Assembly: GCA_024790105.1 (NCBI GenBank)
Contig: GCA_024790105.1_3053.1
DNA from: a phage
Length of the DNA: 64,000 nucleotides
Direction: 5' to 3' (one strand)
Positions 44,584 through 45,039 of the stretch are shown here, piece after piece. A model generated the notes under the pieces. The model was not told the origin of the DNA, did no database searches, and saw nothing but the letters and a program-made list of their open reading frames with translations. Numbering within the stretch: position 1 is the stretch's first letter; each line of letters starts with the position of its first letter. The position numbers and the translations under genes were made by a program.

Positions 44584-45039
44584 TTATTTTAAATCATCTG
44601 CCCAATCGAGTTTAAGAGGCTCTTTGTATTCACGATCTAATACGACCGGAATTTGTACATCACCGCTAAATGATAAGGGCCCAACATTATAAGACAATGT
44701 TATATGCGGTGTGTAATCATCAAAATCATGTGTAGCACCTAGTGCCCGCGCATACATGTGTCGACAGCGCAGATATTCAGAATCTAGCACAAGTACAAGA
44801 GTCGATCCATCTTGTGTTTTCCATACTTCTAAATGCCCAGAAGAAGCTACTTCAAAACTTCCACTCGATGGAACATATGGAACATTTACTCTCGAATAAC
44901 ATATAGTCGAATGAATTTTTTCTCTAGGAACTGGATTAGGAACACGTAAAGAGCGCTGGAGTTCTTCCAGCGCGTCAAGTGTTAATTCTGAAAACTTAGC
45001 TGCTACATAAAGACCCGTTGAAAAGTCTTTAAATTCCAT
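44584..45039 (-). CDS. 57B: 57B / Acb1-like 2H phosphoesterase (anti-CBASS nuclease family)
   Basis: 151 aa; two H-x-T/S motifs (HSTI, HITL) typical of 2H phosphoesterases; position upstream of 57A as in T4. Confidence 0.75.

Follow-up and report, generated by a model that had tools for sequence, protein, structure and literature searches.

The window, a 64,000-nt stretch of phage DNA, carries on its minus strand a short reading frame (44584-45039) that an earlier note had read as an orthologue of T4 gene 57B and as a candidate for an anti-CBASS protein of the Acb1 type. The locus raises the question of whether this frame encodes the nuclease known from T4 or some other member of the 2H phosphoesterase superfamily, and whether the gene is likely to be intact and in use. 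The frame had been described as encoding a 151-aa protein between an internal head protein (IP) gene and gene 57A, and both neighbours were found, as follows.

acb1 (gene 57B) coding sequence: 44584..45039, minus strand; 151 aa plus a TAA stop, with an ATG start
Gene 57A, tail-fibre chaperone: 45039..45281, minus strand; immediately upstream of acb1; Pfam PF17594 (GP57), 5.2e-51
Internal head protein gene: 44254-44511, minus strand; 85 aa; downstream of acb1; phrog_3499, 1e-49

Identity of the 57B protein

Comparison by BLASTP with the 57B product of T4 (NC_000866) showed that the window protein is identical, at 151/151 positions, to residues 2-152 of gp57B (NP_049750.1), the protein that Hobbs et al. 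named Acb1 in 2022 (PMC9117128). Consistent with this, Pfam PF23474 (Anti-CBASS protein Acb1) matched the protein with an E-value of 2.6e-60 and a score of 202.7 bits (cutoff 27) along the whole profile (positions 1-144 of 144), and it was the sole Pfam family above threshold. A search of the PDB returned the Acb1 of Erwinia phage FBB1 (7T26, apo, and 7T27, with 3'3'-cGAMP; E = 4e-62, 96/142 = 68% identity) and a second, distant Acb1 structure (9Q2G; E = 0.004); an NCBIfam search gave no match and was uninformative. An AlphaFold2 model made from the single sequence only was too poor for confirmation of the fold (mean pLDDT 37.9, pTM 0.30), and we infer a compact 2H fold from the 68% identity to 7T26 over 141 residues.

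At the DNA level, the coding sequence carries four differences from that of T4, one in each of codons 22, 27, 49 and 68. They are all synonymous, with no nonsynonymous change, a pattern that we read as the mark of purifying selection that has kept the protein unchanged. With tblastn, the protein was detected in 1,471 of the 50,697 phage records searched, and the match is at least 99% identical in about 500 of them, T6 included. A coding sequence of the same 456 nt is annotated in the related phages PP01 and GADU22, and in GADU22 it is labelled 'anti-CBASS protein'. The window itself is a mosaic Tequatrovirus, with 95-97% identity to several T4-like phages of Shigella and E. coli.

We conclude that the reading frame is almost certainly acb1 (T4 gene 57B) of a T4-like Tequatrovirus, encoding the anti-CBASS nuclease Acb1. 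The assignment to 57B and to Acb1 in the earlier note was correct, as was the statement that the phage carries a known anti-defence gene, the protein being identical to the experimentally characterised Acb1 of T4; the word 'candidate' was too weak, given 100% identity. The gene is already known and well characterised, and finding it here is not a discovery. Its significance is one of annotation, in that a T4-like phage has a copy, seemingly functional, of an anti-CBASS nuclease that has already been characterised, which advances no open question. The labels 'RNA ligase' and 'hypothetical protein' that most orthologues bear in databases are outdated.

Active site, predicted role and alternative activities

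A regular-expression scan of the translation yielded two H-x-[TS] motifs and no others, HSTI (residues 43-46) and HITL (residues 112-115), as had been claimed, apart from a one-residue error in the position of the second ('near 111'). Such motifs are weak evidence when taken alone, because two or more HxT/S motifs turn up in 16% of composition-preserving shuffles of Acb1, and two or more HxT motifs in 2.2%; it is homology that makes the case. The elements that make up the putative active site are listed below, with residue numbers one lower than those of T4 for the reason given in the next section.

First catalytic motif, H43-S44-T45 (T4 H44/T46): 44905..44913, minus strand; codons CAT TCG ACT
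Second catalytic motif, H112-I113-T114 (T4 H113/T115): 44698..44706, minus strand; codons CAT ATA ACA
C-terminal lid, residues 144-151 (T4 145-152), including W146: 44587..44610, minus strand; identical to T4

Alignment with T4 Acb1 showed that neither catalytic histidine has been lost and that all residues published as contacting the substrate are retained. We aligned ten proteins from 8 genera, namely the window protein, T4 Acb1, FBB1 Acb1 and seven homologues (from Serratia phage Muldoon, a Krischvirus, an Aeromonas Tulanevirus, an Acinetobacter Lazarusvirus, a Cronobacter Pseudotevenvirus, a Vibrio Schizotequatrovirus and the Salicola jumbo phage SCTP-2), the seven having 66% down to 27% identity with the window protein. 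Only eleven columns were invariant, and among them were H43, T45, H112 and T114, which correspond to the catalytic tetrad of T4 Acb1, H44, T46, H113 and T115 (PMC9117128). The residues that stack on nucleobases in T4 Acb1 (Y12, W74, F107 and W147) and the one that contacts adenine N6 (E141) (PMC9117128) have their counterparts in Y11, W73, F106, W146 and E140, all present at the published T4 positions minus one. W147 belongs to the C-terminal lid, from which it stacks on a nucleobase (PMC9117128). FBB1 Acb1 resembles the window protein in its 68% identity over residues 8-148, its HxT/HxT tetrad and its C-terminal lid with a conserved Trp; it differs by a one-residue indel after residue 79, by substitutions at about a third of positions, and by a first catalytic motif that reads H-T-T rather than H-S-T.

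What is known of the enzymology and phenotypes of Acb1 comes from published work on the identical T4 protein; that the window phage expresses and uses the enzyme is what we infer. T4 Acb1 was discovered through activity-guided fractionation that followed cGAMP-degrading activity, and it cleaves 3'3'-cGAMP and cAAA (PMC9117128). Cleavage occurs without metal, 3' of adenosine, and passes through a cyclic-phosphate intermediate to GpAp; cA4 is not accommodated, and the 2'-5' bond of 3'2'-cGAMP is not cut (PMC9117128). The H44A/H113A mutant is catalytically dead, and the active enzyme prevents activation of the effectors Cap5, Cap4 and CapV (PMC9117128). T4 lacking acb1 grows normally without CBASS and has a >300-fold defect with CBASS, and Acb1 activity is detectable about 15 minutes into infection (PMC9117128). 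Transcription of acb1 in T4 is mainly middle/late, and an independent transposon screen found 57B/acb1 to be conditionally important on a CBASS host.

By identity with T4 Acb1, when the phage infects a CBASS host and the CD-NTase of that host produces cyclic di- or trinucleotides as signals, Acb1 would act as a small, metal-independent 2H phosphoesterase with a U-shaped pocket that holds these rings. Y11, W73, F106 and W146 would provide aromatic stacking in the pocket, and one adenine would be read through E140. H43, T45, H112 and T114 would then cut the 3'-5' bond 3' of adenosine via a 2',3'-cyclic phosphate intermediate, leaving a linear product that would be unable to activate the CBASS effector, such that abortive infection would be avoided. 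The window phage is predicted to resist CBASS signalling that uses adenine-containing 3'-5' cyclic di- or trinucleotides, and to have no protection from this gene against cGG, 3'2'-cGAMP or cA4 signals. More recent work shows that Acb1 also has a cost: Panoptes systems respond when cyclic nucleotides are depleted, and they restrict Acb1-carrying Tevenvirinae, whose escapers have acb1 inactivated. Because Acb1 depletes cA3 too, the window phage is predicted to be sensitive to such guard systems.

Removal of a host nucleotide second messenger is a function that Acb1 has in common with the MBL phosphodiesterase Apyc1, the poxins, and the sponges Acb2 and Acb4, although the folds and mechanisms of these proteins are unrelated to those of Acb1. 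Apyc1, an MBL enzyme, requires Zn and has cyclic mononucleotides as its substrates; Acb2 and Acb4 leave the signal uncleaved and sequester it.

Roles that go further than published knowledge of T4 can also be envisaged. Acb1 could have a second native activity beyond CBASS signals, such as degradation of the cA3 made by type III CRISPR systems, or action on 2',3'-cyclic-phosphate RNA ends left by anticodon nucleases near the tRNA cluster; alternatively, acb1 could drop out and return as one unit under pressure from Panoptes, by way of the promoter/stem-loop (PeSL) cassette at its 3' end. We consider such additions very improbable, since as far as we can read the sequence it points neither to a second activity nor to PeSL-borne loss and gain.

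A rival to the anti-CBASS assignment would make the 57B product a LigT-type RNA ligase, or an RNA 2',3'-cyclic phosphodiesterase, with the ends of RNA molecules as its substrate, as might occur in tRNA repair beside the phage tRNA cluster. Acb1 and the LigT group do have a common 2H fold and HxT/HxT chemistry: cellular 2H phosphoesterases (LigT / 2'-5' RNA ligase, PF13563) likewise possess two HxT/S motifs and metal-independent acid-base chemistry via a 2',3'-cyclic phosphate, but their substrates are RNA ends rather than a cyclic oligonucleotide immune signal. Names in databases also lean this way, in that phrog_755, which matches Acb1 at 5e-68, is labelled 'RNA ligase', and the orthologue is called 'RNA ligase' in many RefSeq records and 'putative RNA 2',3'-cyclic phosphodiesterase' in one. 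However, these are superfamily names that were transferred by homology and are older than the biochemistry. The match to Pfam 2_5_RNA_ligase2 (PF13563) was sub-threshold (E = 0.11; 13 bits, cutoff 27) and covered residues 80-122 only, and PF02834 (LigT / 2'-5' RNA ligase family) did not match the window Acb1, whereas PF23474 passed its threshold and was alone in doing so. Moreover, the identical T4 protein was purified by its cGAMP-degrading activity, it has a pocket whose shape suits cyclic di- and trinucleotides, and loss of acb1 from T4 has a phenotype only on CBASS hosts. With PF13563 below its gathering threshold and PF02834 giving no match, we rejected RNA ligation as the primary function, and we regard the RNA-end reading as a whole as extremely improbable.

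Start codon and the 57A/57B junction

The assignment to acb1 leaves the start of translation to be placed, since the window and T4 differ at the boundary between 57A and 57B, where the two genes overlap.

57A stop / acb1 start overlap, TAATG: 45039..45041, minus strand; suggestive of translational coupling

The junction reads GAATAATGG in the window and GAATGATGG in T4. A G-to-A change has converted the 57A stop codon from TGA in T4 to TAA in the window, such that the stop is kept and the first ATG annotated for 57B in T4 is destroyed. Translation must therefore begin at the second Met of the T4 protein, and residue numbers in this work are accordingly T4 numbers minus one. For the same reason, the 152-aa T4 annotation (MMEFK...) cannot apply here. 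The comparison hints that in T4, too, translation of 57B may in reality start at the second Met. A TAATG overlap is a standard coupling arrangement, which suggests that translation of acb1 is coupled to that of 57A. An N-terminus that is one Met shorter is very unlikely to matter, because the FBB1 Acb1 construct that was crystallised lacked residues 1-7 and nonetheless hydrolysed its ligand (PMC9117128).

Loss of the first T4 start, together with the natural loss of acb1 by a nonsense mutation in Bas43, might be taken to mean that the frame is a silent or decaying remnant, poorly translated and conferring no immune evasion; this is barely conceivable, given that the frame is intact, an in-frame ATG overlaps the 57A stop, the 4 differences from T4 are synonymous without exception, and the identical 151-aa protein occurs in about 500 phage records including T6, with relatives annotating the same 456-nt coding sequence.

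Gene neighbourhood and the internal-protein locus

Upstream of 57A, and in the same orientation, lies gene 1 (dNMP kinase; Pfam DNMK, 3e-104), giving the order gene 1, 57A, acb1 in the window; gene 3 is next upstream in relatives. The order 3-1-57A-57B is also found in T4 and in six other genera of the Straboviridae (Muldoonvirus, Krischvirus, Tulanevirus, Lazarusvirus, Pseudotevenvirus and Schizotequatrovirus). Judged by this gene order, acb1 is part of a conserved 3-1-57A cluster that borders the variable IP block, and is not itself a shuffled accessory gene. The proposal that acb1 sits in the same accessory block as the IP genes is thus roughly correct: it does adjoin the IP locus, but from within the conserved cluster, at the block's border.

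The downstream neighbour, described as ipI-like, does encode an internal head protein (phrog_3499), but in the form of an ip5-type allele. The 85-aa product has only its N-terminal 22 residues (MKTFKEF...TITE) in common with T4 IPI, a stretch that we take to be the capsid-targeting and cleavage segment, and the gene is annotated as ip5/ipV in PP01 and PST. On this comparison, we conclude that the IP gene beside acb1 is an ip5-type allele and not ipI. Hobbs et al. had likewise remarked on this proximity in T4, where acb1 adjoins ipI itself, which is an anti-GmrSD factor (PMC9117128). Overall, T4 and the window agree in all 151 residues of Acb1 and in having 57A, gene 1 and gene 3 upstream; they differ in the extra N-terminal Met annotated in T4, the four synonymous substitutions in the coding sequence, and the downstream gene, which is ipI in T4 and the 85-aa ip5-type IP gene here. 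GADU22, T6 and PST have an extra IP gene of ~300 nt at this locus, which is absent from the window.

The IP gene is bracketed by two further features.

PeSL-type promoter and stem-loop cassette: 44531..44599, minus strand; overlaps the last five acb1 codons
Second copy of the PeSL-type cassette: 44201-44269; at the far end of the IP gene

These two segments form a 69-nt direct repeat with 86% identity. Each copy comprises the end of the preceding gene (its last codons and stop), a promoter-like site (TTTACA-N17-TACTAT) and a hairpin, and the C-terminal residues encoded within the copies are similar, with acb1 ending in ...DDLK and the IP gene in ...EDLK. The hairpins have predicted energies of -20.5 kcal/mol (z = -4.1) in the copy at 44531-44599 and -17.4 kcal/mol (z = -2.3) in the other, and their stem sequences are not the same. 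In T4 and PST, 'PeSL' cassettes with the consensus TTTACW-N17-TAYWAT are reported to bring about the shuffling of modules at the IP locus (PMC4122927); the promoter-like site agrees with that consensus, and the 69-nt copies fit such promoter/stem-loop cassettes. The same promoter/stem-loop sequence is found downstream of 57B in T4. A canonical intrinsic terminator was sought 3' of acb1 and none was found; the hairpin at that position belongs to the PeSL-type cassette.

Several side observations concern the tRNA region beyond the IP locus. An HNH endonuclease reading frame (42584-43216, minus strand; phrog_14736, 5e-124) occupies the place of the tRNA-Gln gene of T4. Only about the first 9 nt of a T4-type tRNA-Gln are left, with the junction near 43197-43205, and the HNH frame directly abuts tRNA-Leu. 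The HNH region is covered to at least 80% in at least 64 phage records, and HY03, Ozark and ACG-C40 annotate an HNH endonuclease beside tRNA-Leu at the same place. Between the tRNA genes at 40900-42600 there are two more endonuclease frames, one of the GIY-YIG type and segB-like (41010-41675) and a second HNH frame (41846-42367). ARAGORN found only four tRNAs in the tRNA region of the window (Arg, Met, Gly and Leu), compared with eight in T4.

Further along, a frame at 40062-40535 on the minus strand encodes a 157-aa protein (phrog_2280) with the N-terminus MKSYTQFLNEA. This sequence resembles what we take to be the capsid-targeting N-terminus of T4 internal proteins, and the product may be another injected protein of the IP type.
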